Source of the DNA: Cyanidioschyzon merolae
Lineage: Eukaryota
DNA length: 64,000 bases
NCBI GenBank assembly: GCA_000091205.1
Contig: AP006502.2
Direction: 5' to 3' (one strand)
Shown one piece after another: positions 15,014-43,212 of the stretch. A model generated the notes under the pieces. It saw only the letters and a list, made by a program, of their open reading frames with translations, had not been told where the DNA came from and made no database searches. Positions within the stretch are counted from its first letter, which is position 1, and each line of letters opens with the position of its first letter. The translations under genes and the position numbers were made by a program.

Positions 15014-15346
15014 ATGCCTCGCAAATATTTCAACAAAAAAGAATACCCTCGCCGCGAAGTCCAGCGTCGGTTGCAGGCAACGTCACCAGTGCTTCGCTGG
15101 TATCGAAGCGTTACTTTGAACGACCCACCGATGCCGGCGGCCGCGTGTCGCTGCTGGCCGTCATCGGCGGTGACGTGGCTTCTTCTGCAGCCACAATTGC
15201 CTCGATCATCTCTGGACGCAGTGCTGTGGAGCGATGACACGAGCCGGGGGCGATCGTACGAACGATACAGGTGTTTAAAATCAAACGTGTTCCAGGATCA
15301 GGTGCGTGTTCTCACATCCTTGTTCGCAGTTCATAGCAGATGCGTT

Positions 15347-15763: not shown

Positions 15764-15942
15764 AAACTGAACCGGAGAGCAAGCTGTCTGTCAAAAATTG
15801 ATGGGAGGCGTGTGTGCTTGGGTAACAAGTTACCCTCTACGGCCGTAGAACATTTCTCGTGTTCCCGATTATAGATACATAACATACTCATGGTCGCTGA
15901 AGTTCGGTTTCTCATTCTATGTCGTCATCATCAGTCTTTGAG

Positions 15943-16300
15943 GACCTTTTACGCGACTGCCTCCTTTTCCTACCTCTGATATCCGGCTTTGAAGACGGCG
16001 ATCGTTGCGCTCACTGCTGCTCTTTTTTCAGCAGTCTGAGGATGCTCATGGATGCGTCCAAGTAAGGAGTTAGCCGCTCCTAGCTTTCTTATAACGCATT
16101 TCAGGCGCAGACCGCAGCTGGGATATTTGCTTCGCATGCTATTTTCACCTTCATCGTAGACAATTTCGGTTCGCCTTTCGCACCGGTGACACTTGGCTGT
16201 GGTCGGGTCTTCTCGTGCGTCCGCTAAACCGCATTCATGCGCTGCTCTGCGGCTTACGAATGCTTGCTTCATCGCTCGTTATATGCCTGTAACAGGTGGA
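15943..16300 (-). mobile_element. repeat family 1, copy E
   Basis: The minus-strand ORF reads TTAKCHRCERRTEIVYDEGENSMRSKYPSCGLRLKC (CxxC-x17-Cx5C zinc finger). About 75% nucleotide homology to copy A, including tcgcaccggtgacacttggctgtggtcgggtc. It shares the same low-coordinate boundary. Confidence 0.45.
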
Positions 16301-18016: not shown

Positions 18017-18317
18017 CCTGAGCGAACAAGCCGTTCCCGCAAACGCACTTTGCAACGATGACGGTGTGGCGCGGCGGGCGCGCCTCCGTAGGGACGGAGG
18101 CCTCGCGTCAAGCGCCGACAACAGCCACCGTTGTATATTGCTTTCCTTCGGCATTGTATCGATACTTCTAACCTGAGAATCGCTGTATGCACAATGGTTA
18201 TAGCAGGCATGTCGGAATGAAATAGAATGGGTCCACTTATTGTTCTCAGGCGTGTACGTGGCAGTTTGCAACCCTGCCACGGTTACCATTGTCATCAATC
18301 CTAGCTTTTGTAGAATG

Positions 18318-18720
18318 TTTCATGGACTGCTTCCACTTCCTTTCTCTTATATCTGGCTTTGAAAATGATTGCTTCTCCTTTCCATCCAGCCCTGTTGTCA
18401 GCAGTCGAAATCTATTGATGTCGGTGTTCAAGTCCCGACTACGCGGCTTTCAGCTGTCGTTCGCACATTTCATGTACAGACGGTTGTTGCGCTCGACGTT
18501 TCGTTCGCCATGTTTACCTTCTTTGGTCGCAGACATGGTGCGCCCTTCGCAGCGGTGACACTTGAATGTGGTCAGGTGTGTTCCCTTATGCCAACCAAAC
18601 CGCCCAGCACCGGAGGCTGCACAGTGGCGCGTGCACGCTTGGCTCACCGTTCAGTAAACGCTCTTGACGTGTACAAAAGAATAAGTTCGAAAGCTCCCTC
18701 CAATTCTAGGTCCGGTTCCG
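18318..18720 (-). mobile_element. repeat family 1, copy A
   Basis: The minus-strand ORF reads HKGTHLTTFKCHRCEGRT...RLYMKC. Conserved blocks are shared with copies B, C, D and E: ccagccctgttgtcagcagtcga and tttcatgtacagacg. Confidence 0.45.
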
Positions 18721-20150
18721 TAGCTTGAGATCACATGCTTCATCTGAGCGATGTCCTCGGCAACTGTTTCGTCCTCTTCACGCGAGAACGTATGCTGTTC
18801 CATTCGATAAAGGATTAGGGGAATAAGATGTTGTTCATGATGAACCGAGCCCCGGACGGCAAATTCGAGCTGGAGAACAAGTCAAGCAATGTCGAGCCTG
18901 CTACGCTCCTTCACTTCAAGGCGATGACGCATGCTCGACCGGATGCGATCGCCTCCATGACTCAATCCGAGTCCAAGAACGTTTTTGCTACGCAGCCATA
19001 CGAGACGGGAGCTCCTCGGTGCATCTCCCGAGAGCGGGGTTTCGTGCAGATCTCGAACGCTGTTATGTCGAGGACTCTACCAACAGCACGCTTTGTCTTC
19101 CGAACGGAGTGAATCGGTTATTGGGCATGACATATTCAGTGAACTCACAGCAGCAACACGTGAACATGTCGGCAGGAGACAACCGTAGGGCCCTAGCCGC
19201 ATCAATCAAGCGGTCCGAATGGCTGCGCCTTCGAGTTGCCGTGAAAAGTAAATGTCGAATGCCAGACCAACGATGATTGAGGCATGCTATGCATAAGAAA
19301 GAAAGAAGCGTAGATCCTTGTAAGCATCAACTGAATAATAATATCGATTATTTTACGAACTCTTGTTCAAGTGCATTGCGAATCAAGTATACTCCGGTGT
19401 CGTAACGAACATCAGCAGCTCAGAGTCGAAAGAGCCACTCCGCAAAAACGACCGAGGGCTCTAGGACCGCATATGAATCCGTAAGCCCTTATGACAACAT
19501 TTCGAATGTCGAGGCTGTATATCGAGAAAAGCTCAGGGACAAACTGGAAAGCAGGAGCATCGCGAGTCGTGCAATGCTCGATTTATAATTGACATGGGTG
19601 CAACATCTGAGGAAGCAACTAATGCTGCTTTTGAAACGCTCAGCGTCTCACACGCTTCACAAGAAACTTCCTCGGAAATCATGATCATTTCGCACGCTCC
19701 ACGGCCTGACTATCCATGCTGCAACGTCGAACGCAGGGCGGCGGGTATCCCGCGGACCCATTGCGCTGACAATACGAAGACCCGCGAACTGCGTCGCAAT
19801 GTCCATTTCGTCGCTTCGGTCCTTAGCAAGTGCTCGAGCACGCAGACAAGCAGTCGCCCGCTCGTTTCCTCTGCACTTGGTTACGGTGGGAGCGATTTAT
19901 TGCGTACAAAAAATTCAGCTTCATTTCTTCGCTGAACGAGGCAGAGAACGTTTGGAAGCACTGAAACGGCTGGAGGAGTGCACATCGCCGTGCTTTTCGC
20001 GGAGTTAGACCACTCGCACGTTGCACGCAATTCGAACTGAAGAAACTCCATGCGCTGCTAACAAGTCTTGCACGCGTCTGATAAATCAGCTAGTCCACCC
20101 TATCTTGCCTAGGTATAGGGATACCGCTCGCATTTCTGGTACATTCGATC

Positions 20151-21749
20151 ATGCTTCTGGCGGAAAGCCTCGGCGGCGTCGCTTTTGTCACCGTTCACAC
20201 GGTGCTGTGCGTCGCTGTACTGTACTTACCGTGGAACCGCGGCGACCGAGAAAGCTTCCGTGTCACTTGTCTAGGGGCTTTGAGCACTTGCGCTGTTATC
20301 GCTCTGAGCCTGGTGAATCTTCAGTTGTTCTTCACTGGCTTGACCTGGCGGGAGCTGTCGCGGACGTATCACTGGCTGAGGCCGTGGCACAGCTGGCAAG
20401 TCTATCTACTGGACTCTGGCGGTTTTTTGGTGCTCCTTTTTCTGCACGAGTACAGAAAAAGACAGCAGACTCCAGTTAAGAGTTCGTCATCGAGCACGTG
20501 TGCATCGACGTCGCAGTCCGCTTGCCCGAATGCGGAGAACGGCATCTATCGAAACGAGAGGCGAAATACCTGGTGCATGTTCCGAAGCCTGCTGATCGCA
20601 CCGATAACAGAGGAGCTCCTCTTCCGTTGTGTATTCGATGCAGCAATGAGATCAGCTCAAGTCCCTGAACTTGCCAGCATGATTTTCAACGGAGTCATGT
20701 TTGCCGTAGCGCACGCGCATCACTATTTCCGGCACCAGAGCAGGTCACTTCTCGGAAAGCAGCTTCTTGTAACGTTTTGCTTTGGTTGCGTCCAAGTCGT
20801 TTGCCTGAGACGGACGGATTACTCCCTGTGGGCCTGCATCGCAACGCACGCTTTGGCGAACGCGCTCGATCTGCAGAAAGTTTTCAGTGATAGGGGAGCG
20901 TCACATTTTCTCTACGGCGACGTAGGCCATCAGTTAGGAGCCCTGCTGCAAGCTGCAGCACCGCTCGTATTCATCTTGCGCTATGCGCTTGACATGGCCA
21001 TGCAAGCGAGTCCGTTCCGGTCCTCGATCCTCCAGGTGCATGCGGACCCGGGGCTGCTCGAGGAACGGCGTGAAATCATGCGTCCAACGACGCCGTTTTC
21101 GCTCTTCTTGATAGAATATCATCAGCGTGATCCGATCTTCGGGCGCTTCATGGCTCTCTGCTCCATGCTGCCTCAACTTTTATTCGCCGCAGAGGTCACA
21201 GCTGTCTACTGTTGGCGAAGTCCGCGCGCATTGCTCCTAGCTGTTGGCCAGATTGTGAACGAGACGCTGAGCTACGCACTCAAGCGATCGTGTCGGATAC
21301 CTCGCCCGCCAATCGCTCGACTGGAAGCAGATGCGTTCGGTTGGCCCTCTTCACACGCTCAGTTCATGTCCTACTTGTACGTTTTCTACGTACTCTATGT
21401 GTCTAGGCCACAGCGCAAGGCATCATCGAGCCACAACGGTGAAATGATGCACCAGACGCTTCCGAAGCGGAGGAAGACGACCGATTCAATTTCGGAAACC
21501 GTGGCAGTGATGTTTTTGCTAGGTCTGTCATCCGTTCTGGTGGCTGCCTCAAGAGTATACCTGGCATATCATTATCCCAGTCAGGTTTGGTATGGAATCA
21601 TCATGGGCACTATTTTCGCGATAACCTGGTTCCTTGCGAGTGAAAACGTTTTCTTATCCTACGTTCGATCATTGCGGATTCTCGTATGGCTCGGGTTCGG
21701 CGAAGATGACTCTGACCTGTTTCGCAGTATACTCAGAGATGTGCATTAG
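20151..21749 (+). CDS. in-frame fusion ORF: CAAX prenyl protease 2 (RCE1, CPBP family) N-terminal half plus dolichyl-diphosphatase (DOLPP1/CWH8, PAP2 family) C-terminal half
   Basis: The N-terminal half carries the RCE1 catalytic motifs EExxxR (ITEELLFR), FxxxH (FAVAH) and HxxxN (HALAN) at the correct spacing. The C-terminal half carries DOLPP1-specific PAP2 motifs: KRSCRIPRP (KxxxxxxRP), PSSHAQFM (PSGH) and SRVYLAYHYPSQV (SRxxxxxHxxxQ). The ATG is at 20151 and there is no stop between the two halves. Confidence 0.7.
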   Translation: MLLAESLGGVAFVTVHTVLCVAVLYLPWNRGDRESFRVTCLGALSTCAVIALSLVNLQLFFTGLTWRELSRTYHWLRPWHSWQVYLLDSGGFLVLLFLHEYRKRQQTPVKSSSSSTCASTSQSACPNAENGIYRNERRNTWCMFRSLLIAPITEELLFRCVFDAAMRSAQVPELASMIFNGVMFAVAHAHHYFRHQSRSLLGKQLLVTFCFGCVQVVCLRRTDYSLWACIATHALANALDLQKVFSDRGASHFLYGDVGHQLGALLQAAAPLVFILRYALDMAMQASPFRSSILQVHADPGLLEERREIMRPTTPFSLFLIEYHQRDPIFGRFMALCSMLPQLLFAAEVTAVYCWRSPRALLLAVGQIVNETLSYALKRSCRIPRPPIARLEADAFGWPSSHAQFMSYLYVFYVLYVSRPQRKASSSHNGEMMHQTLPKRRKTTDSISETVAVMFLLGLSSVLVAASRVYLAYHYPSQVWYGIIMGTIFAITWFLASENVFLSYVRSLRILVWLGFGEDDSDLFRSILRDVH

Positions 21750-22479: not shown

Positions 22480-23442
22480 TTACAGGGCTCTGTCATCTCG
22501 CATGGTGCTTGCTAGGACAGCGTCCGCACCTCGTTCACGCAGACCTCTCAGCAATGAGGCATTGGGGGCGTGCTCACGTGGCAGCTCCACGATGACTCGA
22601 AGCCCTAGTCTCCTAGCTTCCGGTGCGAACCGCTCGAGCAACGCCTCTGAGTCGCTAAGCATAGGCACAAGACTGTCGAGGTCTCTCTTCGCGAGAAGCA
22701 GAATGCTAATGCGGCCGTCATCGCTGTGCTGCCTCTTTGCTGTCAAAAGCGCATCCAACTCGGCGGCATCGTGCACTTCGATGATGGGCGCCATCCCCAG
22801 CGCAACGCTTGCCTTGGCAAAATACAGCGTATCCTTCAACCCAAGCACCTTCATGATAAGCACACAAGCATCAGCTTGATAAAAGCGCGCGTCGTACAGT
22901 TGCCATGGATACACGAAAATGTCCTTGCAGATAACCGGACACCTGACGACCTCATGAACCCTCCGAATATCCTCGTAGCTGCCGTAGAAGCGGCGCGACT
23001 CGGCATTCACCACGACTGCTCTGGCATCGTTCTTCTCTTCAGCCACATTTGCCAGAATAGGTGCAGACTCTGTGTCTTCCGGTGAGCAGCGCTGGTACTG
23101 GAAAAAGAGCACGCTCTCCGGCCCTGCGGAGTCCCAGAAAACCGAGTTGAGGTCGCGCACCGGAGCGACATCACTTTTCTCTAAGCGGCTTTTCATAAGG
23201 AACAGAGGCATGCGCTGCCGACGCACTTCAATTTCACGCTCTTTGGCCCAAACGAGCTCCTCGAGCAGGTTCCTCGGTTTATCCTCGGGGTTCTCAACGC
23301 CCCAGACGACGTTCTCTGCGAACACCTGACGGCCATTCCGGATGGAGCGTCGCCGAATCTGGTCAACTGCCTCGTTTGACCCTTCGCTACGCTCGCTGTG
23401 GTTGCATCTTAGGCTTACGATCCAACTCAGTCTCAAAGGCAT
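22480..23442 (-). CDS. trpC: indole-3-glycerol-phosphate synthase (TrpC), probably organelle (plastid) targeted
   Basis: IGPS motifs: VICKDIFVYPWQLYDARFYQADACVLI, APIIEVHDAAELDALL and GLRVIVELPRE. An N-terminal extension of about 40 aa looks transit-peptide-like. Confidence 0.8.
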   Translation of the reverse strand: MPLRLSWIVSLRCNHSERSEGSNEAVDQIRRRSIRNGRQVFAENVVWGVENPEDKPRNLLEELVWAKEREIEVRRQRMPLFLMKSRLEKSDVAPVRDLNSVFWDSAGPESVLFFQYQRCSPEDTESAPILANVAEEKNDARAVVVNAESRRFYGSYEDIRRVHEVVRCPVICKDIFVYPWQLYDARFYQADACVLIMKVLGLKDTLYFAKASVALGMAPIIEVHDAAELDALLTAKRQHSDDGRISILLLAKRDLDSLVPMLSDSEALLERFAPEARRLGLRVIVELPREHAPNASLLRGLRERGADAVLASTMRDDRAL

Positions 23443-24248
23443 GTTCTCGATTATAGCTTATCGAGGAAGAGACGGAAGCAAGAAGGCACGCCTGTCACGT
23501 TGTGCCGCTGTGGGTGCCTCGCAAAGCACCATTTATTCCTGGACATATTAGGCCAAGACAGTCCGATGCTGTCACCTGGCAAGTGTGCGTTTGGCTTCGC
23601 AGCGCCGGAGGCTCGGCACTGCAATGCAGTGCTTGCCACGGGCACGACAATCCAGAAAATCGTCTGATTCCGGAGCGCATGTGGGTGCATGAAGGAGCAT
23701 AGTTGATGCCCCGGAGGAAGGATGAGGCGTGCCTAGGTAACCGGTTGAATACCTTTCGCATAGGATACGGTGTTGCTGCAGAGTTCGCTCGATCATGTCT
23801 TTAGAACACACTCTAGAGCCCTGATGATGCATGCGGGTTGTATCGCTTTTTTCGTCGGATCCTATCCCGGATGCAGCCTGATGGTACACACGTGACGGGC
23901 TTCGAGCCGCGAGGGTGCATACCTGATGCATCAAGTGTGGGAATTCGCGGCATGAACAAGCATATCCGAAGCTGTTCATCATGCATGTCGCGTCAGCTGG
24001 GAACACGGTATAGATGCCTGCACGAGAAGCGGGCGCGTTTTCGGGCAATATTCGAACGTGTTCTCGGGGCGGAGCCTGCACTTCCATGAGGAATGCTGTG
24101 GCAGCCACGCAGTGAATGATTCACGAAACGATTCGCCGTCATATGCCTAGTCCCCAGCGGGTATACTGCGTTTAATTAACGTGGGGCGCTTGTCGCTTTC
24201 TGTGTCCTAAAAGCACAAAAAGCCTTGCTGATCAGGGTTATACTCGGT

Positions 24249-26829
24249 GCAGAGAATTCTGGAGTGCCTGTATCAGCACGCTGTTTTCGATTTATTTCGG
24301 GTTTCTCGCATACAGTCAACAAAGGAATGCATCCTGTACATTACAGAGAAGACACGGAAAGACTGGTGCTGTCAATGCTAGGATGCGTTCCATGGCCCTA
24401 CGACTACAAGTTCGCCGTTCTGCGCTCAGCGCGTGCATGAACCACACTCGTCGTTGCCCCTGAGCTGAACGTCCTGCACCCAAACCAGATCCCAGAGAAC
24501 GCCCACTAAACGACCGTCTCTCTGTCGATTCACGCCACGACATGCAGTCTCGAACAGGCCGCTATCACAGATGCCAAAGAATGCGACGTTTCCGTTCCGC
24601 AGATGCGAACGGCCACGAACACACGCAGACGGACAACCGAAAACGGCATGCTTATGAGCGGAACTGTCGCACGTCCAGCTGCACACACTTGATTCCGCAC
24701 GGAGACGCGTGTGAGCGCTTCCCATGGGCGACAAGCGCTCATCATCTCGGTCGCAGAGACCTCATTCCCGAGAATACCTGCATCACAATATGGGTACGCC
24801 AAGCAGGGCGTACCGCTGTTCGTAACGAAGGGACGCACGGGAAGACCGGCAGCACCAGCCCGAGTGGCAGTGCGGCCGTGTGGAGGCCTGCACTCGCGAA
24901 ACGCACAGCATCGTGCACTACGTCATCCCGTGTCTGAGCTGTCTCGTCGCGCGTTCATCTCCATACACTGGGTTGTCCTGATCGCGGACGACGCTGCTTT
25001 CCATCACTCAAACCCGGTCAAGGAGCGCGCACCTGAGGCAGGCGTTGAGCGGCTCCCTCCACTGGCTCGTGCTTCTGGGTTCATTCAAGTCGAGGCGTCT
25101 GCGCTGTTGTCAAGTGCCGTTTTCGCAGGCACGCGTCCGTGCACGAGCCGCTCGCAACCGTGAAACGCGTCTTGCACAATTCGTCTCTTGGTCTGTGTCA
25201 GCGATGAACTGGAGTGTTGCCCCTGTGCTCGTGGGCATGCGGCAGCGCGCCGGCGTGCTTCGGTCCTTGAGCGTGCCCGCGACGAACAGGATGACGAAAA
25301 GGTAACTAGATATACATATGTACGTGGGGCAGGGGATGTTTAGTGGCACTGTTTGCACACCGCACCGAGTCCAGGAGAGAAACCGGATGGAAAGCATCGG
25401 AAACACTGTTTGGCACACAGCGACGTGAGGGAGATTCAGAAGGATACCACCAGGCAAAGAAGAGGGAGATTCTCCGGGAAAGAGCGCAACAATGGGCATG
25501 AATGAAAAGCTGTCGGGGCGGAAAGATCAAACGTACGCCGTCCTTGAGGCGTCTCCGCCGAAACACATCAATGGGGAGAATGCTCCAGGACGTGAAATGC
25601 AGGATGCTATTAGGGATCGCACAGCGTCTTACTCGACACGTCGTGTCCAGCACCTCGCGCCTCGGTGCATACCGCCGAAGCATTGTTTTACGAGTTCTGG
25701 AAGAAGGTCTGGCAGCTGTCCACATTCCTCTGGATTATTTCGATCCAACTATCGTGCAGCAAGAGAACGGATGCTCGCGACAGACGATTCTCGATGGCCC
25801 AGTCATATGGTTCGAGATTCGCACAAACGCCTCGAATCGTACCTCGACATGCGCCAGCACAACGTCTTCGCTCGAAAAATGTTCTGCAGTGCATGTGCCA
25901 AATGGTATCAAATGCCTAACTGCAGACCGAAAAGCCTATGTTGGTGAACCTCGAGAGCTTCATGGAGCGCACCGTGTGGGCGTTGTATCCTCATCTTCGT
26001 GGGCCCGCAAAGAAGAGCTGATGGAGGGGATTCTCTGCTCCAGCTTGTACATGAGTGCCACTAGGTGTCACGGGGGCGATCCCTGGCATGGGCACGTGGT
26101 GTCGCGCTGGGGCCGCCACCCGTATCGCAGTGCGGAGGCAAGAGGCGTGTATTCGGGCACACGTTCAATGCGTCAGAAGAAGGAGATGATTGAGAGGTCG
26201 CGTCGCTTGCCCGTAGCCTATGGCGCTGCTCGTTCCGGGCAGCGTAAAACCTGCACTCGTACAGCCTTCGCGCCGAATGTGCAACGACTGCAGGAATCGA
26301 TGCTGCACAACTCCCATAGATGCATCCCCGACGACATACGCGCCTCACGAGCACGAGTGCACCCTGCAACAGGCCCAGAAGCAGTATGTGGAATGGAGTC
26401 GCATGCACGAGATGGCCTACGACCAGCTCAGCAAACATCAGATGCCGAGGCAATCGCCAGTGAGACGCTCGGTATGGTAGGATTCCACAGGCCGCAGTAC
26501 GCCCGAGCGAACAGTATCTGCGCGGAGACTTCAGCCCATCGATGACCTGCAGGTACCGTCTTGCACTTGCAGAGCGTCCGGCTTCCTTGCGTCGAGCGAG
26601 TTCTCGATGTCTACGCTCAGCACGCATCAGTCTGGGCGCTTCGCGAAAACGCTGCAGACCTGCGACGGAAGATAGAAACCCCATTGCCCAGGAGAGCGGG
26701 CATTGGATTCAAGCTTGAAGCGAGCCACAGGTATGGTATGGTACCGCGATCCAGCAAGATTACAGCGCTCAATATCTGCACCGAAAAACCTTTCCCAGGG
26801 CACCTGCTAGACGATATTTGGGTTTTGTT
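24249..26829 (+). repeat. 2581-bp direct repeat, copy 1 (upstream of SERCA)
   Basis: Near-identical (about 99.5%) to 30385-32965 at a constant offset of 6136 bp. Only a handful of single-base differences are visible as amino-acid changes in the duplicated ORFs. Confidence 0.95.
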
Positions 26830-27054
26830 CCACGATATCACCCATCCTGGTCAAGTACCGCTCCAACTGAACATAAACGGTACCTGATTCCACGCTTACG
26901 AACTTTGCACACACATCCCGTGAATTCTGGTTGAACGCAAGCGTCCAGCACGATGCCATACCACAAAACACAGAGCCGTGGAAGCCGATGCACCAGAGGT
27001 CGCCTCGTCACGCTCGACGAGCGCCTCTGTTGGCGCTACGCCAGCGTTCCCAGT

Positions 27055-27164
27055 CGGCAGTCTAAAATCGACGCTGGCGACGTGCAGGCGGGCGAGTGTA
27101 CCCAGGAGCGGCGTGTGTCCAGCACCGGCGCCTGCGCGTTGCCAGCGTCGATTTTAGACTGCCG
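27055..27164. repeat. long inverted repeat (hairpin), 23-bp perfect core plus extended imperfect stem of about 35 bp, loop of about 37 nt
   Basis: ggcagtctaaaatcgacgctggc (27056-27078) is the exact reverse complement of gccagcgtcgattttagactgcc (27141-27163). Pairing continues inward with G-U/G-T wobbles. It sits 117 bp upstream of the SERCA ATG. Confidence 0.9.
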
Positions 27165-27280
27165 CCCCGGTCAACGAAGCGCTTGTCGTGGCCCGCGACG
27201 CATACCGAATCCAGGCGGTGCTCGGTAGCTTGTCGAGACGTTCAGCAACGTCTCTCTGGACCAAAAGTCGTGTGTGTTCC

Positions 27281-30200
27281 ATGGAAGACGCGTTCTGCAG
27301 GACTGCTGAAGAGGTTCTCGAAGCATTTCAAGTACGCAAGGACTATGGCCTCACTGAGGAACAGGTGGCGCTGTACGCCCAGCGGTACGGTAGGAACGTA
27401 ACAGCTCGTGAGGAGAGCGCACCGCTGTGGCAGCTTGTCGTGAAACAGTTTCAGGATCAGTTAGTTTTAATACTTTTGGGTGCTGCTGGAATTTCTTTTA
27501 TTCTAGCTTTATTTGAGGACGATGAGGATCGGGTAACAGCGTTTTTTGAGCCTCTGGTTATCGTCTTGATTCTCGCTGCGAACGCTACTGTCGGTGTGAT
27601 TCAGGAGACCAACGCAGAGAAGGCGATAGAAGCCTTACGGGAGTATGAACCGGACGACGCTACCGTCTTGCGCTGCGGAGAACTTCGGCGGGTGCGGTCA
27701 GAAGAGCTTGTTCCCGGTGATATTATCGAGGTTTCTGTGGGTATGCGCGTTCCAGCGGACTGTCGCATCATCGAACTTGCCTCCACGGTACTCTACGCGG
27801 ACCAATCCGTCCTCACCGGGGAGAGCATCAGCGTGAGCAAGTCTCCAGAGGCTATAACGGACACGCAGTGCATGATTCAGGACAAGACCTGCCTGCTATT
27901 CGCAGGTTGTACGATTGTGCGCGGCAAGGCCCGGTGCGTTGTTACTCAAGTCGGTGAACGAACGGAAATCGGGAAAGTGCGCCGCAATATCGCAGAAACA
28001 AAAGCGGTGATGACGCCTCTCAAGCGCCGCTTGGATGAGTTCGGCTCACTCCTCAGCAAAATCATTCTGTTGATCTGCGTTCTGGTGTGGCTGATCAATA
28101 TTCGAAACTTTTGGAACCCCGAGCACGGGGGGTTCCTTCGAGGTGCAGTCTATTATTTCAAGATAGCTGTTGCTTTGGCTGTAGCAGCGATACCAGAAGG
28201 TCTGCCTGCTGTTGTAACGACATGCTTGGCACTCGGTACAAAACGAATGGCCCGCAAGAATGCGATCGTGCGCTCGCTGCCGAGCGTGGAAACGCTGGGA
28301 TGCACCAGTGTTATCTGCTCGGACAAGACAGGAACCATCACGACGAATCGCATGTGTGTGACGCGTGTCTTGCTGGTGAGCGATGTGCTCCCCGCCGGCG
28401 ATGGAAAGCTTCTGGACCTCGAAGTGACGGGCCACGGAGACTTCTCACCGTTTGGAAATGTTGTCTACAACGGTTCAGTCTTGGAGAGTCCCCTGAAGAG
28501 CCTGCCCCCGTTGGCGGAGCTGAGCATCGCGGCAACCTTCTGTAACGATGCTTCAATCACCTTCAACATGAAAGGAAGACAGTACGACAAAATCGGGGAA
28601 GGGACTGAGGCAGCCCTGATCACGCTGGTGGAGAAGCTTCGCACGCCCGATGAACACTACAATGCGGAAATATCTCACATGCCTCTCGTGCAACGTGCAA
28701 CGGCAACCAGAGCCTACTGGAACCGGCTCTTCGAGCGCGTTGCAACACTAGAATTCACCCGCGATCGCAAATCAATGAGTGTCTTTTGTCGTCGTTTATC
28801 TGACGAGTCGCTCCATATGTTCGTGAAGGGCGCTCCCGAACGCATTCTGGAGAACAGCGATTATGTATGCATTGGCAACGGTATGCGTATTCCGATCACG
28901 CCGGTGCTTCGTCGTCAGCTTCTGGATGCGGTCGCGAGTCTCAGCAGCGGTGTCCATGCGCTGCGAACGCTCGCGATTGCAACTAGAGATCATCCACCAG
29001 CATTGGAAACCGTAGATATGCGCGACACCCAAAGCTTTGCGCGATACGAATCCAACCTGACGTTCATTGGGCTGGTCGGGATGATTGACCCACCGCGGGA
29101 GGAGGTGCGTGCTGCCATCGAGACCTGTGCGCTTGCCGGAATCCGCGTGATTGTTATCACCGGAGACAACAAAGCAACCGCTGAGGCTATCTGTCGACAG
29201 GTGGGTATATTTGATGACTACGAAGATCTCTCAGGGAAAAGTTACACTGGTCGAGAGTTTGAATTGCTTCCCGAGGATGCACGTCGCCAGGTCGTCCGAA
29301 GAGCGCGTCTTTTTGCGCGCGTCGAGCCGCTCTGCAAACAACGCATCGTGACGCTTCTGCAAGAGCGAGGTGAAGTAGTCGCCGTCACCGGCGACGGTGT
29401 GAACGACGCTCCGGCCCTGAAAGCTGCAGATATCGGCATCTCCATGGGTACCGGGACTGCCGTTGCAAAGGGTGCCGCGGACATGGTACTCGGCGATGAT
29501 AACTTCGCCACGATCGTTGCTGCGGTAGAAGAGGGTCGCGCGATCTACGAAAACATGCGACAGTTCATTCGATATCTCATCTCGTCGAACATCGGGGAGG
29601 TTTGGTGCGTTTTCCTTACCGCTGTGCTGCATACACCCGAAGCGCTGGCACCGGTGCAGTTACTCTGGGTCAATCTGGTGACTGACGGTTTACCAGCTAC
29701 CGCGCTTTCCTTTAATCGACCGGCCAAGAACATCATGCAGCAACCACCGCGACCCAGCAATGAGCACATCGTGAATGGGTGGCTTCTCTTCCGCTATCTC
29801 GTCATCGGTACTTACGTAGGTGTTGCGACAATCGCTGGGCTCATCTGGTGGTACATGTTCTATGCAGGCGGACCTCAACTCTCCTGGTCTGAACTGCGCC
29901 TGCATCGACAGTGCCAGTCTGGAAACGACTTGGGTACAGGTCTCGCTATCAGCTGCGACATTTTCCGAAGCAGGCACCCGAGCACTGTCTCCTTATCCAT
30001 ACTCGTGACCATCGAGATGCTGAATGCACTGAATTCTCTCGCTGAAAACGAGAGTATTACCATCGTCGGACCATGGACGAACCCGTTCCTCGTACTCGCG
30101 ATATGCCTGAGTTTGGCGCTTCACGCGATCATTCTTTATGTGCCGTTCTTCAATCGTGTATTTGCAACAGCCCCGCTCGATTTTCAAGAATGGGTAGCAG

Positions 30201-30298
30201 TCCTATGGCTCAGTCTGCCGGTGGTATGGCTCGATGAAGGGCTCAAATATTTCAGTCGACTGCAGAAACGTCGTCAAACAATCAAGAAGATGCGGTAA
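27281..30298 (+). CDS. sarco/endoplasmic reticulum Ca2+-transporting P-type ATPase (SERCA/ECA type)
   Basis: P-type ATPase hallmarks: ICSDKTGTITTNRM, KGAPE, TGDGVNDAPALKAADIGISMG and VAAVEEGRAIYENMRQFIRYLISSNIGEV. The track start at 27188 is a GTG codon. The first ATG at 27281 gives MEDAFCRTAEEVLEAFQV, which matches the canonical SERCA N-terminus. This is a single exon of about 1005 aa. Confidence 0.95.
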   Translation: MEDAFCRTAEEVLEAFQVRKDYGLTEEQVALYAQRYGRNVTAREESAPLWQLVVKQFQDQLVLILLGAAGISFILALFEDDEDRVTAFFEPLVIVLILAANATVGVIQETNAEKAIEALREYEPDDATVLRCGELRRVRSEELVPGDIIEVSVGMRVPADCRIIELASTVLYADQSVLTGESISVSKSPEAITDTQCMIQDKTCLLFAGCTIVRGKARCVVTQVGERTEIGKVRRNIAETKAVMTPLKRRLDEFGSLLSKIILLICVLVWLINIRNFWNPEHGGFLRGAVYYFKIAVALAVAAIPEGLPAVVTTCLALGTKRMARKNAIVRSLPSVETLGCTSVICSDKTGTITTNRMCVTRVLLVSDVLPAGDGKLLDLEVTGHGDFSPFGNVVYNGSVLESPLKSLPPLAELSIAATFCNDASITFNMKGRQYDKIGEGTEAALITLVEKLRTPDEHYNAEISHMPLVQRATATRAYWNRLFERVATLEFTRDRKSMSVFCRRLSDESLHMFVKGAPERILENSDYVCIGNGMRIPITPVLRRQLLDAVASLSSGVHALRTLAIATRDHPPALETVDMRDTQSFARYESNLTFIGLVGMIDPPREEVRAAIETCALAGIRVIVITGDNKATAEAICRQVGIFDDYEDLSGKSYTGREFELLPEDARRQVVRRARLFARVEPLCKQRIVTLLQERGEVVAVTGDGVNDAPALKAADIGISMGTGTAVAKGAADMVLGDDNFATIVAAVEEGRAIYENMRQFIRYLISSNIGEVWCVFLTAVLHTPEALAPVQLLWVNLVTDGLPATALSFNRPAKNIMQQPPRPSNEHIVNGWLLFRYLVIGTYVGVATIAGLIWWYMFYAGGPQLSWSELRLHRQCQSGNDLGTGLAISCDIFRSRHPSTVSLSILVTIEMLNALNSLAENESITIVGPWTNPFLVLAICLSLALHAIILYVPFFNRVFATAPLDFQEWVAVLWLSLPVVWLDEGLKYFSRLQKRRQTIKKMR

Positions 30299-30384
30299 AA
30301 GGCTCTGGAAGAGAATGCAATCCGGGAACACCAGCCGCTACAGCAGCGACAACACTCTGCCTCGGAACCTAGACAAGCCCTGGA

Positions 30385-32965
30385 GCAGAGAATTCTTGAG
30401 TACCTGTATCAGCACGCTGTTTTCGATTTATTTCGGGTTTCTCGCATACAGTCAACAAAGGAATGCATCCTGTACATTACAGAGAAGACACGGAAAGACT
30501 GGTGCTGTCAATGCTAGGATGCGTTCCATGGCCCTACGACTACAAGTTCGCCGTTCTGCGCTCAGCGCGTGCATGAACCACACTCGTCGTTGCCCCTGAG
30601 CTGAACGTCCTGCACCCAAACCAGATCCCAGAGAACGCCCACTAAACGACCGTCTCTCTGTCGATTCACGCCACGACATGCAGTCTCGAACAGGCCGCTA
30701 TCACAGATGCCAAAGAATGCGACGTTTCCGTTCCGCAGATGCGAACGGCCACGAACACACGCAGACGGACAACCGAAAACGGCATGCTTATGAGCGGAAC
30801 TGTCGCACGTCCAGCTGCACACACTTGATTCCGCACGGAGACGCGTGTGAGCGCTTCCCATGGGCGACAAGCGCTCATCATCTCGGTCGCAGAGACCTCA
30901 TTCCCGAGAATACCTGCATCACAATATGGGTACGCCAAGCAGGGCGTACCGCTGTTCGTAACGAAGGGACGCACGGGAAGACCGGCAGCACCAGCCCGAG
31001 TGGCAGTGCGGCCGTGTGGAGGCCTGCACTCGCGAAACGCACAGCATCGTGCACTACGTCATCCCGTGTCTGAGCTGTCTCGTCGCGCGTTCATCTCCAT
31101 ACACTGGGTTGTCCTGATCGCGGACGACGCTGCTTTCCATCACTCAAACCCGGTCAAGGAGCGCGCACCTGAGGCAGGCGTTGAGCGGCTCCCTCCACTG
31201 GCTCGTGCTTCTGGGTTCATTCAAGTCGAGGCGTCTGCGCTGTTGTCAAGTGCCGTTTTCGCAGGCACGCGTCCGTGCACGAGCCGCTCGCAACCGTGAA
31301 ACGCGTCTTGCACAATTCGTCTCTTGGTCTGTGTCAGCGATGAACTGGAGTGTTGCCCCTGTGCTCGTGGGCATGCGGCAGCGCGCCGGCGTGCTTCGGT
31401 CCTTGAGCGTGCCCGCGACGAACAGGATGACGAAAAGGTAACTAGATATACATATGTACGTGGGGCAGGGGATGTTTAGTGGCACTGTTTGCACACCGCA
31501 CCGAGTCCAGGAGAGAAACCGGATGGAAAGCATCGGAAACACTGTTTGGCACACAGCGACGTGAGGGAGATTCAGAAGGATACCACCAGGCAAAGAAGAG
31601 GGAGATTCTCCGGGAAAGAGCGCAACAATGGGCATGAATGAAAAGCTGTCGGGGCGGAAAGATCAAACGTACGCCGTCCTTGAGGCGTCTCCGCCGAAAC
31701 ACATCAATGGGGAGAATGCTCCAGGACGTGAAATGCAGGATGCTATTAGGGATCGCACAGCGTCTTACTCGACACGTCGTGTCCAGCACCTCGCGCCTCG
31801 GTGCATACCGCCGAAGCATTGTTTTACGAGTTCTGGAAGAAGGTCTGGCAGCTGTCCACATTCCTCTGGATTATTTCGATCCAACTATCGTGCAGCAAGA
31901 GAACGGATGCTCGCGACAGACGATTCTCGATGGCCCAGTCATATGGTTCGAGATTCGCACAAACGCCTCGAATCGTACCTCGACATGCGCCAGCACAACG
32001 TCTTCGCTCGAAAAATGTTCTGCAGTGCATGTGCCAAATGGTATCAAATGCCTAACTGCAGACCGAAAAGCCTATGTTGGTGAACCTCGAGAGCTTCATG
32101 GAGCGCACCGTGTGGGCGTTGTATCCTCATCTTCGTGGGCCCGCAAAGAAGAGCTGATGGAGGGGATTCTCTGCTCCAGCTTGTACATGAGTGCCACTAA
32201 GTGTCACGGGGGCGATCCCTGGCATGGGCACGTGATGTCGCGCTGGGGCCGCCACCCGTATCGCAGTGCGGAGGCAAGAGGCGTGTATTCGGGCACACGT
32301 TCAATGCGTCGGAAGAAGGAGATGATTGAGAGGTCGCGTCGCTTGCCCGTAGCCTATGGCGCTGCTCGTTCCGGGCAGCGTAAAACCTGCACTCGTACAG
32401 CCTTCGCGCCGAATGTGCAACGACTGCAGGAATCGATGCTGCACAACTCCCATAGATGCATCCCCGACGACATACGCGCCTCACGAGCACGAGTGCACCC
32501 TGCAACAGGCCCAGAAGCAGTATGTGGAATGGAGTCGCATGCACGAGATGGCCTACGACCAGCTCAGCAAACATCAGATGCCGAGGCAATCGCCAGTGAG
32601 ACGCTCGGTATGGTAGGATTCCACAGGCCGCAGTACGCCCGAGCGAACAGGATCTGCGCGGAGACCTCAGCCCATCGATGACCTGCGGGTACCGTCTTGC
32701 ACTTGCAGAGCGTCCGGCTTCCTTGCGACGAGCGAGTTCTCGATGTCTACGCTCAGCACGCATCAGTCTGGGCGCTTCGCGAAAACGCTGCAGACCTGCG
32801 ACGGAAGATAGAAACCCCATTGCCCAGGAGAGCGGGCATTGGATTCAAGCTTGAAGCGAGCCACAGGTATGGTATGGTACCGCGATCCAGCAAGACTACA
32901 GCGCTCAATATCTGCACCGAAAAACCTTTCCCGGGGCACCTGCTAGACGATATTTGGGTTTTGTT
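30385..32965 (+). repeat. 2581-bp direct repeat, copy 2 (starts 87 bp after the SERCA stop)
   Basis: See copy 1. Homology stops abruptly at ...gatatttgggttttgtt in both copies. Confidence 0.95.
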
Positions 32966-33627
32966 ATTTGATTTTACGCAGCGTATCTGCTCGCCTACCG
33001 TCTGGGAAAATGTACTAGTCGAAAACAGTCAGGCCGACGGGTTCGTCGCATGATGCTTGCTCGTGTAGGCAACGCTATTCGCAAAGCGTTCGCTTCATTT
33101 CAAACACTATTTCCGCTGGGCGGGTGGCGTGGCGCGTCACGTTCCATGGTGCATGCTCTATCCAGTCCGCAGAAAGCGCTCCCAGACAGCCTGCTGAGCT
33201 TCGGTGTGGCCTGCGACATGAAAGGTCGACTTTGCTGCGCACTGGCTACACGAACAGCGCCCGACTCTTGCGCTTCGATCGATCATTTCGATGTTTCCGC
33301 GTACAGCACTGGCCGTAGCCTAAACACGACATGTTTGCCCGCCTGATGATATGGATCGCAGGCAATGCATCGCGATTATCGCCACTATGGAGCTAACGCA
33401 TCGCGTCATTCAGCGTAGCATCTCGTCATCGCTTAGTTCAAGCTCAAGAGTAGCAAATATTGTTTGTGCTTAATCATCCGCGAAGTGTTAGCGTCATCGA
33501 AACGACTGAAGCTGGCCATACACACACATACGGGAGCATCTGATCACATACATCCACCTTCAGTCAATAAACATGACTCGAGCTCTGGAGCGCGATTGCC
33601 TCACAAGCGAATGACTTGATCTCCCGT

Positions 33628-33638
33628 GGGGGGGGGGG
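33628..33638. repeat. G11 homopolymer
   Basis: A direct read of gtggggggggggggtg. Confidence 0.8.
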
Positions 33639-34966
33639 TGCGCCATAATGCTCCGGTCTGCCGGGGAGCCGCTGCGCTAGCATTCTGCATCATACGTCGC
33701 ATCGGTTACATTCGCGGTAAGATATCGACATGCATCACCCGAGGAAGGAGCAAATTCCGTACGGAGGTAAAGCAGCAGCTATGCTGCAATGCACAACTCT
33801 GGCAACTACCCCGGGATACGTGGCGAACGCAATGAAATCTCCAACCAGTATCTCCGATTCGGCGCTTTTCGGCTGTCTGTGTCATAAAATGCTTCAGACG
33901 CCGAGTCTGAGTGGCGCTTCGCATAAGACTGATTCGCCTTCCGGCACCTTACCGGGTAGCATGCATGCTTAATGTTTGATGCAGTGTGACGGAGGCAGTC
34001 GTACGATGAGAAACGATCACACGCGTTGCCCGGTATTCGCTCTGTGTTGCCTGGACAACCGAATGAGTAGAGACCCATCTGGTGGAATCGGCAAACTTTC
34101 CAACGCTGCACAAGCCGCACCCATCCAACAACAACCTCGGACGCGAGCAGGACGCAGCACTCCGTGCCTGCTACGCACAGGTTTCGCTTTCGGTGCAACG
34201 CAGATGCCAAATCATCGATTCCAGTGCGCGTGGATAGAAAGCAATAGCTATGGCCAGTTATCTTTGGTACCTAGGCTGCGCTGAACAGCGACAGTCAAGG
34301 AGCAAGCGCTACCGCCCGGTAGAGAGCAGCGCCACACCTCGCGAAGCCGTCGAGTGTGCAGTGGCAGTCCTCCCAGCACGGTTGCACTGCTTCTAGAACA
34401 GAGTGCGCAACCCAGAGCAGTTCATAGGCGTGTCTCAATACCTGAAAACAAGTATCCAAGGCGAACGTTTACCGTGCAGCCTCCTCAAATGTGGTGCAAC
34501 CGATAGCTCCAGGAGTGTGTCAAGCCCTAGCGCATGAACCTGACGGATGCCTTCCGAGAGACTTTATTCTATCAGATTCAGCACACAATGGCGTAAAGTA
34601 CGTCTCCGATTCTTTCCAGGAGGCTCTGCACGCGAACGTACCTTGAAGCCCTGCTCCGGTCCGTGGAGCTCTCATACCAGAACGCAAAAGTAATTTCGTC
34701 TGCCGCTGCTTAACGACGCAACTATTGCCCTTTCCTGTAGCTCTGTACAAATGTAGGTGCCTACCTACCCGCCGTACTCGACTACCTTGCGTCCCTCAGT
34801 GCCGTAGCTGCTTGCCTGGTGTACACCTCAGCGCTCGAACGCATTCGCCGTACAGCGCAGCGTCGACTAAACGCGACACCACATTTGTCTCTCCTCGCGC
34901 TGCTCGACGGCCAGTCGTTTGCACTGGTCAGGGAAACCTGCGGCTGTCTCCGGAAACTTCTCGACC

Positions 34967-35911
34967 ATGTTTGTAAATACTGCGCTGACACGCGTGCAAC
35001 TTGTGAGTCGCAGTGGTCAGTCTCCGTCCAAGACTCTAGTGCGGGGGGAACTGTACGCGTCACCTGCCGGGGCCTTTGTGCCCCGAGCACAACGCTTAGT
35101 GTCAGGCGTGACTGCAGCCAGGCCGAGTCGGACGCTTGCGCGTCAGACGCTTTCCATGAACCTCTTTTCCCGCTTCTTTCGCGTGATACGTGCGAATCTG
35201 AACGCGCTTGTCTCGAGAATGGAAGATCCAGAAAAAGTCTTGACACAGTCACTGGAGGACGTGCAGAAGGACCTGTTGCGGTTGCGGCAAGCCTACGCCG
35301 AGGTCTCTGCCAGTAAGAAACGACTGGAACGACAGCGGGAAGCGGCACTGAAAACTGCTGCAGAGTGGCAGCAACGTGCACGTCTGGCACTCGAGAAAGG
35401 TAACGAGGATCTTGCTCGCGAGGCTCTCCTCCGGAAGAAGCAACAAGAGGACATGGCCAAAGCGTTGGAAAATCAGCTGCGTATGCAGGCTGAAAATACT
35501 GCAAAGCTTTACAGCTCGATGCAGCAATTAGAAGCGAAAATATCGGAAGCACAAGCGAAGAAGGACGAGTATATTACGCGTGCTCGGACGGCCAAGACTG
35601 CAATCAAGGTGAATGAGATGTTGACGTCAGTGGACACGTCCAGTGCGTTGTCCGCGTTTGAGCGCATGCAGGAGAAGGTCGAAACCTTGGAAAGCCAGGC
35701 TGAAGTGAGCCGACAGATGATCGGTTCCGGGGATGCGAGTCTGGAGAGCCAGTTTCGGGCGCTGGAGGCCGGCACCGACGTCGATGAGGAGCTCAACCGG
35801 ATGAGGCGGGAACTACGAGGCGATTCCTCATATCGTGCTCTTCAAGCCTCCCGTGATCCTGAAATTGATGAGGAGATCCAGAGAATGAAACGGGAACAGC
35901 AGCAACGTTGA
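34967..35911 (+). CDS. VIPP1: VIPP1/IM30 (PspA family) with N-terminal transit peptide
   Basis: Colinear PspA/VIPP1 homology: MNLFSRFFRVIRANLNALVSRMEDPEKVL, EDLAREALLRKK, TRARTAKTAIKVNEM and SALSAFERMQEKV. The C-terminus carries the VIPP1-specific extra helix (DPEIDEEIQRMKRE). The track start at 34919 is a TTG codon. The first ATG at 34967 gives a 63-aa extension beginning MF, rich in Ser/Thr/Arg/Ala. Confidence 0.9.
   Translation: MFVNTALTRVQLVSRSGQSPSKTLVRGELYASPAGAFVPRAQRLVSGVTAARPSRTLARQTLSMNLFSRFFRVIRANLNALVSRMEDPEKVLTQSLEDVQKDLLRLRQAYAEVSASKKRLERQREAALKTAAEWQQRARLALEKGNEDLAREALLRKKQQEDMAKALENQLRMQAENTAKLYSSMQQLEAKISEAQAKKDEYITRARTAKTAIKVNEMLTSVDTSSALSAFERMQEKVETLESQAEVSRQMIGSGDASLESQFRALEAGTDVDEELNRMRRELRGDSSYRALQASRDPEIDEEIQRMKREQQQR

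Positions 35912-43180: not shown

Positions 43181-43212
<32 letters not shown>

Follow-up and report, generated by a model that had tools for sequence, protein, structure and literature searches.

Why does the single gene for a SERCA-type Ca2+-ATPase of Cyanidioschyzon merolae lie between two long, almost identical direct repeats? The arrangement raises the questions of what the repeated DNA is, how it came to flank the gene on both sides, and why its two copies are so similar. We analyzed the locus within a 64,000-nucleotide stretch of contig AP006502.2 (assembly GCA_000091205.1), hereafter the window, where the repeat is denoted R and its upstream and downstream copies R1 and R2, respectively. 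The explanation that we consider likely as a whole is that R1 and R2 are members of an old repeat family that inserted on either side of SERCA and have been kept alike by gene conversion.

Architecture and synteny of the SERCA locus

A self-alignment of the window shifted by 6136 bp, together with self-BLAST, delineates a direct repeat of 2581 bp, the two copies of which show 99.57% identity, with 11 mismatches and no indels. Beyond the left end of the repeat, weak similarity extends for another ~3-5 nt (24244-24248); a chance origin is ruled out for a 2.6-kb match at 99.6% identity. These values confirm the first-pass annotation, made from the sequence alone, which had described two 2581-bp direct repeats at ~99.5% identity with the same offset. 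The distances given there are exact, with R1 ending 452 bp before the SERCA ATG and R2 starting 87 bp after the stop (that is, the first base of R2 is the 87th base past the stop), and the report of a single SERCA also holds in the window, where self-BLAST detected neither a second copy nor a fragment of the gene. The locus is laid out as follows.

22480-23442, minus strand: indole-3-glycerol-phosphate synthase (IGPS), left syntenic neighbour (Pfam; same neighbour in Cyanidiococcus)
24249-26829, plus strand: R1, upstream copy of the 2581-bp element (self-comparison; full-length match to the family profile; bridged by contig L026)
26830-27280, plus strand: spacer a2, unique, the SERCA 5' region (contig ends cluster at 27172-27235)
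27281-30298, plus strand: SERCA (P2A Ca2+-ATPase), single, intronless, 1005 aa (complete P-type ATPase Pfam domain set)
30299-30384, plus strand: spacer b1, unique, 86 nt, from the SERCA stop to R2 (window self-comparison)
30385-32965, plus strand: R2, downstream copy of the 2581-bp element (self-comparison; bridged by contigs L023 and L024)
34967-35911, plus strand: VIPP1/IM30 (PspA family), right syntenic neighbour (Pfam; start checked; same in Cyanidiococcus and Cyanidium)

R1 occupies the intergenic region between the divergent IGPS and SERCA genes, 806 bp from the IGPS ATG, and R2 ends 2001 bp short of the VIPP1 ATG. Spacer a2 contains an inverted repeat with 36-nt arms (27055-27090 and 27129-27164). 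The SERCA protein is identical to that of C. merolae 10D (BAM83222.1 / XP_005539258.1) and represents the sole C. merolae cluster among the top 120 homologues.

The position of SERCA is ancestral, being syntenic in three genera. The gene order is IGPS-SERCA-VIPP1-CDC50 in Cyanidiococcus (contigs L002-5) and SERCA-VIPP1-CDC50 in Cyanidium (L040), and the intergenic regions at this locus in both genera (0.8-1.7 kb) contain no R-like sequence. When R2 is removed, the distance from the SERCA stop to a conserved block at 33401-33528 is 545 bp, compared to 546 bp in Cyanidiococcus. Judged by synteny, R1 and R2 each represent a clean insertion when compared with the outgroup genera.

The repeat as a member of an interspersed family

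Relatives of R, here called the F1 family, are present at four independent loci, with nhmmer E-values of about 1e-13 to 1e-56: the R1/R2 locus, two other sites in the window (13145-12495 and 63168-63633), and positions 8661-10820 of contig L041. The family features in the window are these.

12495-13145, minus strand: old partial F1 copy, R positions 2-641 (nhmmer E=1e-27 with R alone, 8e-157 with the family profile; terminus alignment), beginning 357 bp past the stop of a same-strand 503-aa gene
26133-26759, plus strand: best-conserved F1 module of R, with its partner at 32269-32895 (aligns to L041 10138-10750)
63168-63633, plus strand: old partial F1 copy, R positions 2-470 (nhmmer E=3e-13 with R alone, 4e-99 with the family profile; terminus alignment), adjoining an F2 repeat

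The L041 copy, ~2.2 kb in length, lies on an unlinked eukaryotic contig, where it is flanked by ATP12 and a 605-aa gene; it runs colinear with R from position 2-6 to about 2533-2557, the identity being 58-61%. All four independent copies have the left terminus in common: they begin at R position 2-6, and upstream of this point they are not similar; the right terminus, for which L041 is the one other full-length copy, is fuzzy by ~50 nt. When translated, the best-conserved module matches eight short metagenome ORFs; a module of ~110 aa is common to R and other copies.

No other young copy of R emerged from a metagenome scan, a search of proteins clustered at 90%, and a context look-up, all of which returned only the SERCA locus, nor did an exhaustive HMMER search detect close relatives, yielding only relatives at <=49% identity. 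The first-pass annotation had left it to be seen whether the 2.6-kb repeat occurs elsewhere in the genome; it does, in the form of old, ~60%-identical relatives only. By sequence comparison, R (2.58 kb) is non-coding and belongs, at full length, to an old family of interspersed repeats in C. merolae.

The class of element is less obvious. We found no target-site duplication (TSD), terminal inverted repeat (TIR), LTR or poly(A) tail at the junctions or termini of R, and no reverse transcriptase, transposase or other transposable element domains within it. Read on the minus strand, R could resemble a LINE or SINE, given that the shared end at R position 1 and the truncation of two copies at 470 and 641 nt fit 3' anchoring; yet, neither a tail nor a TSD is present, and the truncated ends lie directly against other repeats. 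The two direct copies around an internal segment also recall a composite transposon (IS-cargo-IS) or an LTR retrotransposon, but both were rejected because R has no TG..CA, TIR, TSD, gag/pol, transposase or other such domains and the internal gene is the host SERCA at its ancestral, syntenic position. LTR retrotransposons have been reported to be absent from the C. merolae genome (PMC1955436).

F1 is probably the 'novel interspersed repetitive element' that Nozaki et al. described in C. merolae in 2007 (253 copies with a mean length of 3.2 kb, ~5% of the genome, spread over all chromosomes and belonging to neither class I nor class II transposons) and that includes a truncated ORF weakly similar to WSV486 of WSSV (PMC1955436); the same element was named 'WSV repeats' by Mikulski et al. 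in 2017 (PMC5405695). The putative equivalence is suggested by the shared organism, the interspersed and intergenic location, the kilobase size (2.6 kb for R), the high divergence of the copies, the lack of a transposase or reverse transcriptase in R, and an ORF that looks truncated or decayed. The differences are that the 64-kb window holds four family copies, whereas 253 copies would predict one per 65 kb, and that R1 and R2 are 99.6% identical whereas other copies are at ~60%; the pair is not described in that paper (PMC1955436).

Near-identity of R1 and R2

The 11 differences between R1 and R2 are concentrated at the edges of the repeat, such that two parts of each copy can be distinguished.

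24267-26063, plus strand: core of R1, 1797 bp, identical to its R2 partner 30403-32199 (longest identical run)
26064-26829, plus strand: 3' part of R1, partner 32200-32965, with 9 of the 11 R1-R2 differences (1.2%)

Fully phased copies are available only from the window, which is of the C. merolae 10D type, and these are the copies referred to as 10D. Within the core, the two 10D copies show no differences, whereas the R of every other strain differs from 10D at 8-18 sites. Moreover, R1 and R2 both carry the alleles private to 10D at R positions 677 and 2042, and one edge haplotype is found in copy 1 in 10D and in copy 2 in L023 and L024. An identical core, shared private alleles and an edge haplotype that occupies different copies in different strains together point to exchange between the copies after the duplication, so that the sequence evidence favours gene conversion rather than youth as the cause of the near-identity. 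Had the reference assembly merged reads of both copies in this region, the lack of differences in the core would in part be artificial, and the metagenome contigs that span the locus, in which the copies are identical, probably represent one collapsed node traversed twice and cannot alone show conversion.

The first-pass annotation had offered very recent duplication and ongoing conversion as alternatives; the latter is the one that the core and the private alleles favour. Recent local duplication on its own would mean that an old intact copy was doubled across SERCA shortly before the strains diverged and that the copies are alike because they are young, with no real part played by conversion. 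The small number of differences is in keeping with this scenario, and so are the still open 347-aa ORF in R and the lack of any other young copy that would point to a long-lived pair. Furthermore, because the 3' parts of R1 and R2 differ by 1.2%, a value close to the divergence between strains, the R1-R2 duplication may be only slightly older than the sampled strains, rather than as old as the family. However, every strain sampled has both copies, joined at the same four junctions, and the features that argue for exchange are not those expected of youth alone; we therefore consider this scenario unlikely, although worth keeping in mind.

With conversion as the preferred reading, the history of the locus could be reconstructed as follows. 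After the split from Cyanidiococcus, R copies of like orientation would have come to flank the ancestral single-copy SERCA, one upstream and one downstream. Since what is duplicated corresponds to the element, the later copy was most likely derived from the earlier one through the element's own means of insertion; both the order and the mechanism of the insertions are ones that we infer. The copies, 3.5 kb apart, would then have stayed nearly the same through recurrent intrachromosomal recombination without crossover, that is, gene conversion, which would be most effective in the middle of the homology and weaker at its edges, while the dispersed relatives drifted to ~60% identity. If the copies recombined by crossover or single-strand annealing, SERCA would be lost, which is presumably lethal in a haploid cell, such that only conversion products would persist.

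Concerted evolution by gene conversion is well known from the two LTRs of a provirus, the arms of Y-chromosome palindromes and duplicated gene pairs in yeast. As in these cases, the paralogues within a genome are closer to each other than orthologues are between strains, with lineage-private substitutions in both copies (10D being the only phased example), the similarity is patchy, being complete in the core and lower at the edges, and the duplication predates the compared strains. Unlike those examples, the R copies are direct repeats around an essential-looking single-copy gene and are non-coding members of a dispersed repeat family, not genes or LTRs. We regard the locus as a neat illustration of processes already known and not as a novel type of system.

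The first-pass annotation had also proposed that the configuration allows excision or amplification of SERCA by homologous recombination. Mechanistically, this is plausible since direct repeats do recombine in C. merolae, where intrachromosomal recombination is routinely used to pop out markers that lie between them, as in engineered marker recycling with URA or CAT-HSVtk cassettes between duplicated terminators (PMC8504449; PMC13353863). In both situations, a gene lies between direct repeats in a background of efficient homologous recombination that would drop the gene and leave one repeat. R1 and R2, however, are natural and ~5 times longer, and they flank the only SERCA, so that pop-outs should be counter-selected. 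The events themselves were not observed: no copy-number variant or excision product of SERCA is present among ~25 independent contigs, in which short-read assemblies could not reveal extra tandem units.

Function, tandem duplication and assembly

Among the ORFs of R, one stands out by its length.

25502-26545, plus strand: 347-aa ORF in R1, with a twin at 31638-32681 (unusually long; no coding signature)

This ORF is longer than any in 2000 shuffles and is open in 19 of 19 sequences, a length that is left unexplained by a purely non-coding reading. Its polymorphisms comprise 11 non-synonymous vs 2 synonymous changes, its differences from L041 are distributed 40/41/40 over the three codon positions, its codon score is 0.019 vs 0.06-0.15 for real genes, its amino-acid composition is nearer to that of random translation, and its predicted structure has a pLDDT of 33.5. 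Neither R nor the ORF has matches in Pfam, PHROGs, PDB, Rfam or IMG/VR. Between strains, R diverges by 0.6-1.0%, like other intergenic DNA, compared to ~0-0.7% for coding sequence and 0.03-0.27% for the SERCA CDS. On these measures, R evolves like intergenic DNA and its ORFs carry no coding signal; the earlier impression that the repeat ORFs of up to 347 aa look non-coding is thus borne out by codon usage, Pfam, codon-position and polymorphism tests.

The same data bear on the possibility that R1 and R2 are a selected functional pair, with R acting as the 3' end or terminator of SERCA and as upstream regulatory DNA, as a long non-coding RNA, as the gene for the 347-aa protein, or as a cassette for adaptive change of SERCA copy number. 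The proximity of R2 to the SERCA stop would suit such a role, and several short contigs, which may be transcripts, extend from SERCA 145-190 nt into R2; three of five F1 copies begin 87-357 bp past the stop of a same-strand gene, and the elements of Nozaki et al. have been reported to be transcribed (PMC1955436). Together with the length and persistence of the ORF, these observations speak for the proposal, but the intergenic rate of divergence, the 11 non-synonymous vs 2 synonymous polymorphisms, the equal divergence at the three codon positions, the codon usage and amino-acid make-up typical of translated non-coding DNA, and the lack of database matches or a confident structure all speak against it; in addition, the outgroups live without R and no copy-number variant was seen. 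Selection for function is, in our view, decidedly improbable.

A weaker case can be made for partial tandem duplication. The first-pass annotation had interpreted the locus as ~1.4 units of a 6.1-kb tandem unit, which would imply that R plus SERCA was doubled by unequal exchange or replication slippage, with 1.4 units left and R having no identity of its own. The R-SERCA-R geometry and the period of 6136 bp fit, but the repeated unit turns out to be a discrete interspersed element, of which three much diverged copies with one and the same left terminus occur at unrelated loci. On the left, the repeat is bounded within ~5 nt of this terminus, which the three independent diverged copies share, and on the right its boundary lies within ~50 nt of the point where the homology to L041 ends. 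A duplication arbitrary in extent would ignore the family termini, so that breakpoints at these termini speak against it, as do the lack of any fragment of a second SERCA and the clean insertion of both copies relative to the outgroups, making this origin very unlikely indeed.

Near-identical repeats are a classic source of misassembly, and identical copies inside the spanning metagenome contigs are typical of a collapsed graph node, but the artefact that the first-pass annotation had considered, whether one copy placed twice by mistake or a longer array collapsed, is next to impossible given that the window copies differ at 11 sites, that independent assemblies tie R1 (L026) and R2 (L023 and L024) separately to unique flanks on both sides, and that the finished window does not show a longer, hidden R-SERCA array (in short-read assemblies, extra tandem units would escape notice). 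The whole R-SERCA-R structure is spanned by six contigs from separate metagenomes (L006-8 and L016-18) at 99.2-99.5% identity to the window, and all four junctions agree in >20 contigs from different samples and assemblers. Short-read contigs stop at the repeat edges, as a true repeat predicts.

A near-identical repeat pair around the SERCA gene

The SERCA gene of Cyanidioschyzon merolae lies between two copies of a 2581-bp repeat, R, with the following layout:

24249-26829, R1, first copy of R
26830-27280, unique spacer a2
27055-27090 and 27129-27164, arms of an inverted repeat (hairpin) within this spacer
27281-30298, intronless SERCA ORF, 1005 aa
30299-30384, unique spacer b1
30385-32965, R2, second copy of R
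25502-26545 and 31638-32681, 347-aa ORF in R1 and its twin in R2

The near-identical repeats around SERCA described in the first-pass annotation are real: in self-comparison of the window (offset 6136) and by self-BLAST, R1 and R2 differ by 11 mismatches and no indels (99.57% identity), and the distances given there, 452 bp from the R1 end to the SERCA ATG and 87 bp from the stop codon to R2, are both exact. The longest identical run covers 1797 bp (24267-26063); two mismatches fall in the first 21 nt of the repeat and the remaining nine in its last 766 nt. The SERCA protein contains the complete P-type Ca-ATPase domain set and is identical to BAM83222.1 / XP_005539258.1 of C. merolae 10D, the reference strain that carries the window; self-BLAST detected no second SERCA fragment in the window. 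Genes of the window are intronless and located on both strands, encoding UbiA, a NifS-like protein, Rce1-like/PAP2, IGPS, SERCA, VIPP1, CDC50, and a BRCT protein; the Rce1-like CAAX-protease and PAP2 phosphatase domains are fused in one 532-aa ORF (20151-21749), a fusion also present in Cyanidiococcus. Literature searches found no description of the R-SERCA-R locus.

R-SERCA-R is not an assembly artefact, a concern that had been set down for checking. The whole structure is spanned by six contigs from different JGI metagenomes (L006-8 and L016-18; 99.2-99.5% identity to the window), and the single copies are bridged to unique DNA on both sides, R1 by contig L026 and R2 by L023 and L024. Short-read contigs break off where the repeat begins or ends, leaving overhangs of k-mer size. 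Neither a deletion junction nor any other arrangement was found among the contigs examined, bar two chimeras: L009 (1-3773), in which SERCA, together with 58 bp upstream of its ATG, is fused to WD40 and PRA-CH genes, and L023, in which bacterial-like genes are linked via a fold-back at the hairpin. Both were considered as alternative genomic contexts and rejected as chimeric assemblies. Among the members of the SERCA 90% protein cluster (P0123-P0134) are also entries of 437 aa labelled 'histidinol dehydrogenase' and a fusion of 1404 aa (P0128); like L009, these odd members most likely stem from chimeras in (meta)transcriptome assembly and reflect no true rearrangement.

R as a member of an old interspersed family

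The duplicated unit is one complete, discrete copy of an old interspersed element family, F1, rather than a chance segment of the chromosome. Three partial or diverged relatives were aligned with R:

13145-12495, minus strand, corresponding to R positions 2-641 (nhmmer)
63168-63633, corresponding to R positions 2-470 (nhmmer)
L041, unlinked eukaryotic contig of 24.6 kb, R relative in a 3-kb spacer that separates an ATP12 gene from a 605-aa gene

The last of these emerged from an exhaustive HMMER search that used the 347-aa ORF as query and, beyond R, returned eight short metagenome ORFs with 40-49% identity to residues 225-336; one of the eight is carried by L041, and the metagenome of this contig also contains C. 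merolae. The L041 spacer is colinear with R (24254-25306 versus L041 8666-9709, 58%; 26133-26759 versus L041 10138-10750, 61% DNA identity), with ~0.8 kb of the R middle shortened. In the multiple alignment, all copies share the start motif (C/G)(C/T)(A/G)G(A/T)G(A/C)AT(T/G)CT, upstream of which the sequences are unrelated, and the R-L041 homology fades at most ~50 nt from the right end of R. Given this shared left start and the end of homology near the right end, R is best regarded as a discrete family element, and its earlier description as a portion of a ~6.1-kb tandem unit is wrong.

The question of whether R occurs elsewhere is thus answered by relatives of ~60% identity, with no other young copy among the metagenome contigs and proteins searched. 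Scanning JGI metagenome contigs with the ORF peptides recovered the SERCA locus only, and among 5.8 billion proteins, the only 90% cluster matching a 207-aa minus-strand ORF is R itself, with 10 of the 10 contexts listed being the SERCA locus. Because the metagenome and protein searches return this locus alone, R1 and R2 seem to be an isolated pair among distant relatives.

Within R, no internal or tandem repeats, TIRs, or LTRs were detected, nor any tRNA in a tRNA scan; Rfam gave no match in R, at the gathering threshold over the whole window or at E<=1 over both intergenic regions. Searches of Pfam with ten R ORFs at E<=1 yielded nothing meaningful, PHROGs and PDB sequence searches yielded nothing, and a scan of IMG/VR revealed no relative of the 347-aa ORF. 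An organellar origin was rejected given that the GC content of R is 56.6%, unlike that of organelle genomes, which are AT-rich.

No target-site duplication, tail, or terminal repeat was found for R. Viewed on the minus strand, the family has one shared 3' anchor point and differing 5' truncations, a pattern known from non-LTR elements, 26 of which are present in the C. merolae genome (PMC1955436). Because the truncated ends abut other repeats, however, a non-LTR-like mode of spread is only a lead.

In Cyanidiococcus yangmingshanensis (L002) and its close metagenomic relatives (L003-5), the gene order is Rce1/PAP2, IGPS (minus strand), SERCA, VIPP1, CDC50, and in Cyanidium caldarium (L040), it is SERCA, VIPP1, CDC50; SERCA identity is 83-84% for L003-5 and 71% for L040. 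The intergenic regions flanking SERCA span 0.8-1.7 kb in the outgroups versus 3.8 and 4.7 kb in the window, and nhmmer detected no R-like sequence in these regions of Cyanidiococcus and Cyanidium. The distance from the SERCA stop codon to a conserved non-coding block (33401-33528) is 546 bp in L002 and, with R2 subtracted, 545 bp in the window; SERCA thus occupies its ancestral position, and R2 was inserted cleanly. On the R1 side, where there is no conserved anchor, subtraction of R1 leaves 1258 bp versus 1058-1430 bp in the outgroups, which fits as well. Relative to the outgroups, both copies are thus insertions. Apart from the conserved block, nothing in the SERCA-VIPP1 spacer aligns with Cyanidiococcus; within the block, identity is 69-75% over 85-134 nt. 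The block has no Rfam match and may be an upstream control element of VIPP1 or a small RNA.

The ORFs of R had been described as non-coding in appearance, and tests of codon usage, polymorphism, codon position, and composition bear this out. Codon-usage scores are 0.01-0.04 for the R ORFs versus 0.06-0.15 for real genes; polymorphisms in the 347-aa ORF are non-synonymous in 11 of 13 cases; its differences from L041 are spread equally over the codon positions (40/41/40 of 118); and its amino-acid make-up resembles a random translation of R more than it does real proteins. In a single-sequence run, AlphaFold gave the 347-aa ORF a pLDDT of 33.5. An exact look-up retrieved no record for the 207-aa or the 347-aa ORF; neither is therefore an annotated gene. 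Between strains, R diverges by 0.6-1.0% versus 0.3-2.0% (mostly 0.5-1.3%) for adjacent intergenic DNA; the corresponding values are 0.03-0.27% for the SERCA CDS and 0-0.7% for other coding sequences. The 347-aa ORF fails every coding test run, and its one oddity is its length: among 2000 dinucleotide shuffles of R, the longest ATG-ORF was 332 aa (99th percentile, 263), none reaching 347 aa, and the ORF is open in 19 of 19 strain/copy sequences. We consider it highly improbable that the pair is more than neutral DNA, with the 347-aa ORF being a young protein gene in rapid evolution, either encoded by the element or arisen de novo, or with R-SERCA-R retained for reversible change of SERCA copy number or for the SERCA 3' end and upstream control in this extremophile. 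We tentatively read the 347-aa ORF as a not-yet-broken relic of the 'truncated ORF' of the family.

Probable concerted evolution of the copies and possible consequences for SERCA

Both R copies are present in all strains sampled, and the duplication therefore predates the common ancestor of these strains. Of the two explanations offered earlier for the near-identity, recent duplication and ongoing gene conversion, conversion is favoured: over R positions 22-1818, the window copies have no differences, whereas 17 of the 17 R sequences from other strains differ at 8-18 sites. Alleles at R positions 677 and 2042 are found in both window copies and in no other strain. At the R 5' edge, three haplotypes segregate, with TGGG at copy 1 in the window and at copy 2 in L023 and L024, where it lies within reach of the unique flank. 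The identical core, the shared private alleles, the haplotype at differing copies, and the confinement of mismatches to the edges together form the textbook signature of gene conversion within a paralogue pair, provided that the core is correctly resolved in the reference. The metagenome contigs that span the structure add no phased information, since the two copies within each are identical, most likely because the assembler walked a single collapsed node twice.

The edge region (24249-24320, R positions 15-71; partner 30385-30456) carries at least three haplotypes, TGGG, TTAG, and CAAC, at positions 15, 16, 21, and 25, which occur at either copy depending on the strain; many polymorphisms recur across strains as mosaics, a pattern suggestive of recombination between C. 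merolae lineages in nature.

The proposed potential for recombination between the repeats is upheld by work in C. merolae, where direct repeats of a few hundred bp recombine efficiently enough for marker recycling (PMC8504449, PMC13353863); since such shorter repeats recombine, crossover or single-strand annealing between the 2.6-kb repeats should occur. No second C. merolae cluster appears among the best 120 matches of SERCA, and an excision product, devoid of the only SERCA found, should be lost in a haploid cell. Unequal sister exchange would yield R-SERCA-R-SERCA-R; the finished window has one SERCA copy, and short-read assemblies cannot show the larger array.

The locus adds one more example to known phenomena: two copies of a dispersed repeat in concerted evolution. 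It is also a clean natural case involving nearby copies in a genome famous for almost no repeats, with the gene between the copies probably making the deletion product unviable. It could act as a natural reporter of intrachromosomal conversion versus crossover rates, and the 2.6-kb twins matter to homologous-recombination targeting of the SERCA, IGPS, or VIPP1 region.

The SERCA upstream hairpin and other repeats of the window

The inverted repeat upstream of SERCA has 36-nt arms (94% complementary) and a 38-nt loop and lies 117 bp upstream of the ATG; Rfam gave only sub-threshold, miRNA-precursor-like matches there (27053-27166). Metagenome contigs L023-25 end or fold back at the hairpin (27055-27164), and contig 5' ends cluster just downstream (27172-27235). 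In the JGI series Ga05065xx-066xx (L001, L019-22, L032-36, L039; window 23787-34850), ends cluster at 27172-27235 and 34798-34850, which are repeat-free. If these samples are metatranscriptomic, the SERCA transcript would start ~50-110 nt before the ATG, and RNA would extend across R1, R2, and the spacer to VIPP1. The 3' ends of L001 and L019-22 were considered as a SERCA poly(A) site and rejected: because several fit a k-mer overhang into the repeat (30403+126 = 30529; 30403+140 = 30543), they are unreadable as transcript ends.

Two further old, interspersed, non-coding families occur in the window, their copies mostly 64-72% identical within a family where blastn aligns them:

F3, ~1 kb: 1825-2831, 8496-9510, 15909-16409, 18280-19287, 54454-55462, 61598-62591
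F2, ~550 bp: 11918-12469, 15272-15823, 56680-57238, 63636-64000

With R included, 16.3 of the 37.0 kb of intergenic DNA (~44%; 25% of the window) has a paralogue within the same 64 kb, far above the published C. merolae repeat content of ~5.7%, which may be an underestimate. None of the repeat families of the window was detected in the Cyanidiococcus or Cyanidium loci, and the comparison suggests that the longer intergenic regions, and hence the larger genome, of C. merolae stem largely from an ancient burst of such elements. Although a side observation, this repeat-rich intergenic DNA may matter more than the R pair. Short tandem arrays are also present at 43094-43401, 48782-49040, 5916-6132, and 2851-3033, with periods of ~90-96, 133, 80, and 62 bp, respectively; identities are 90-98%, and one array, the 133-bp pair, lies across the 3' end (stop codon) of the BRCT-protein ORF on the minus strand (48911-51847).
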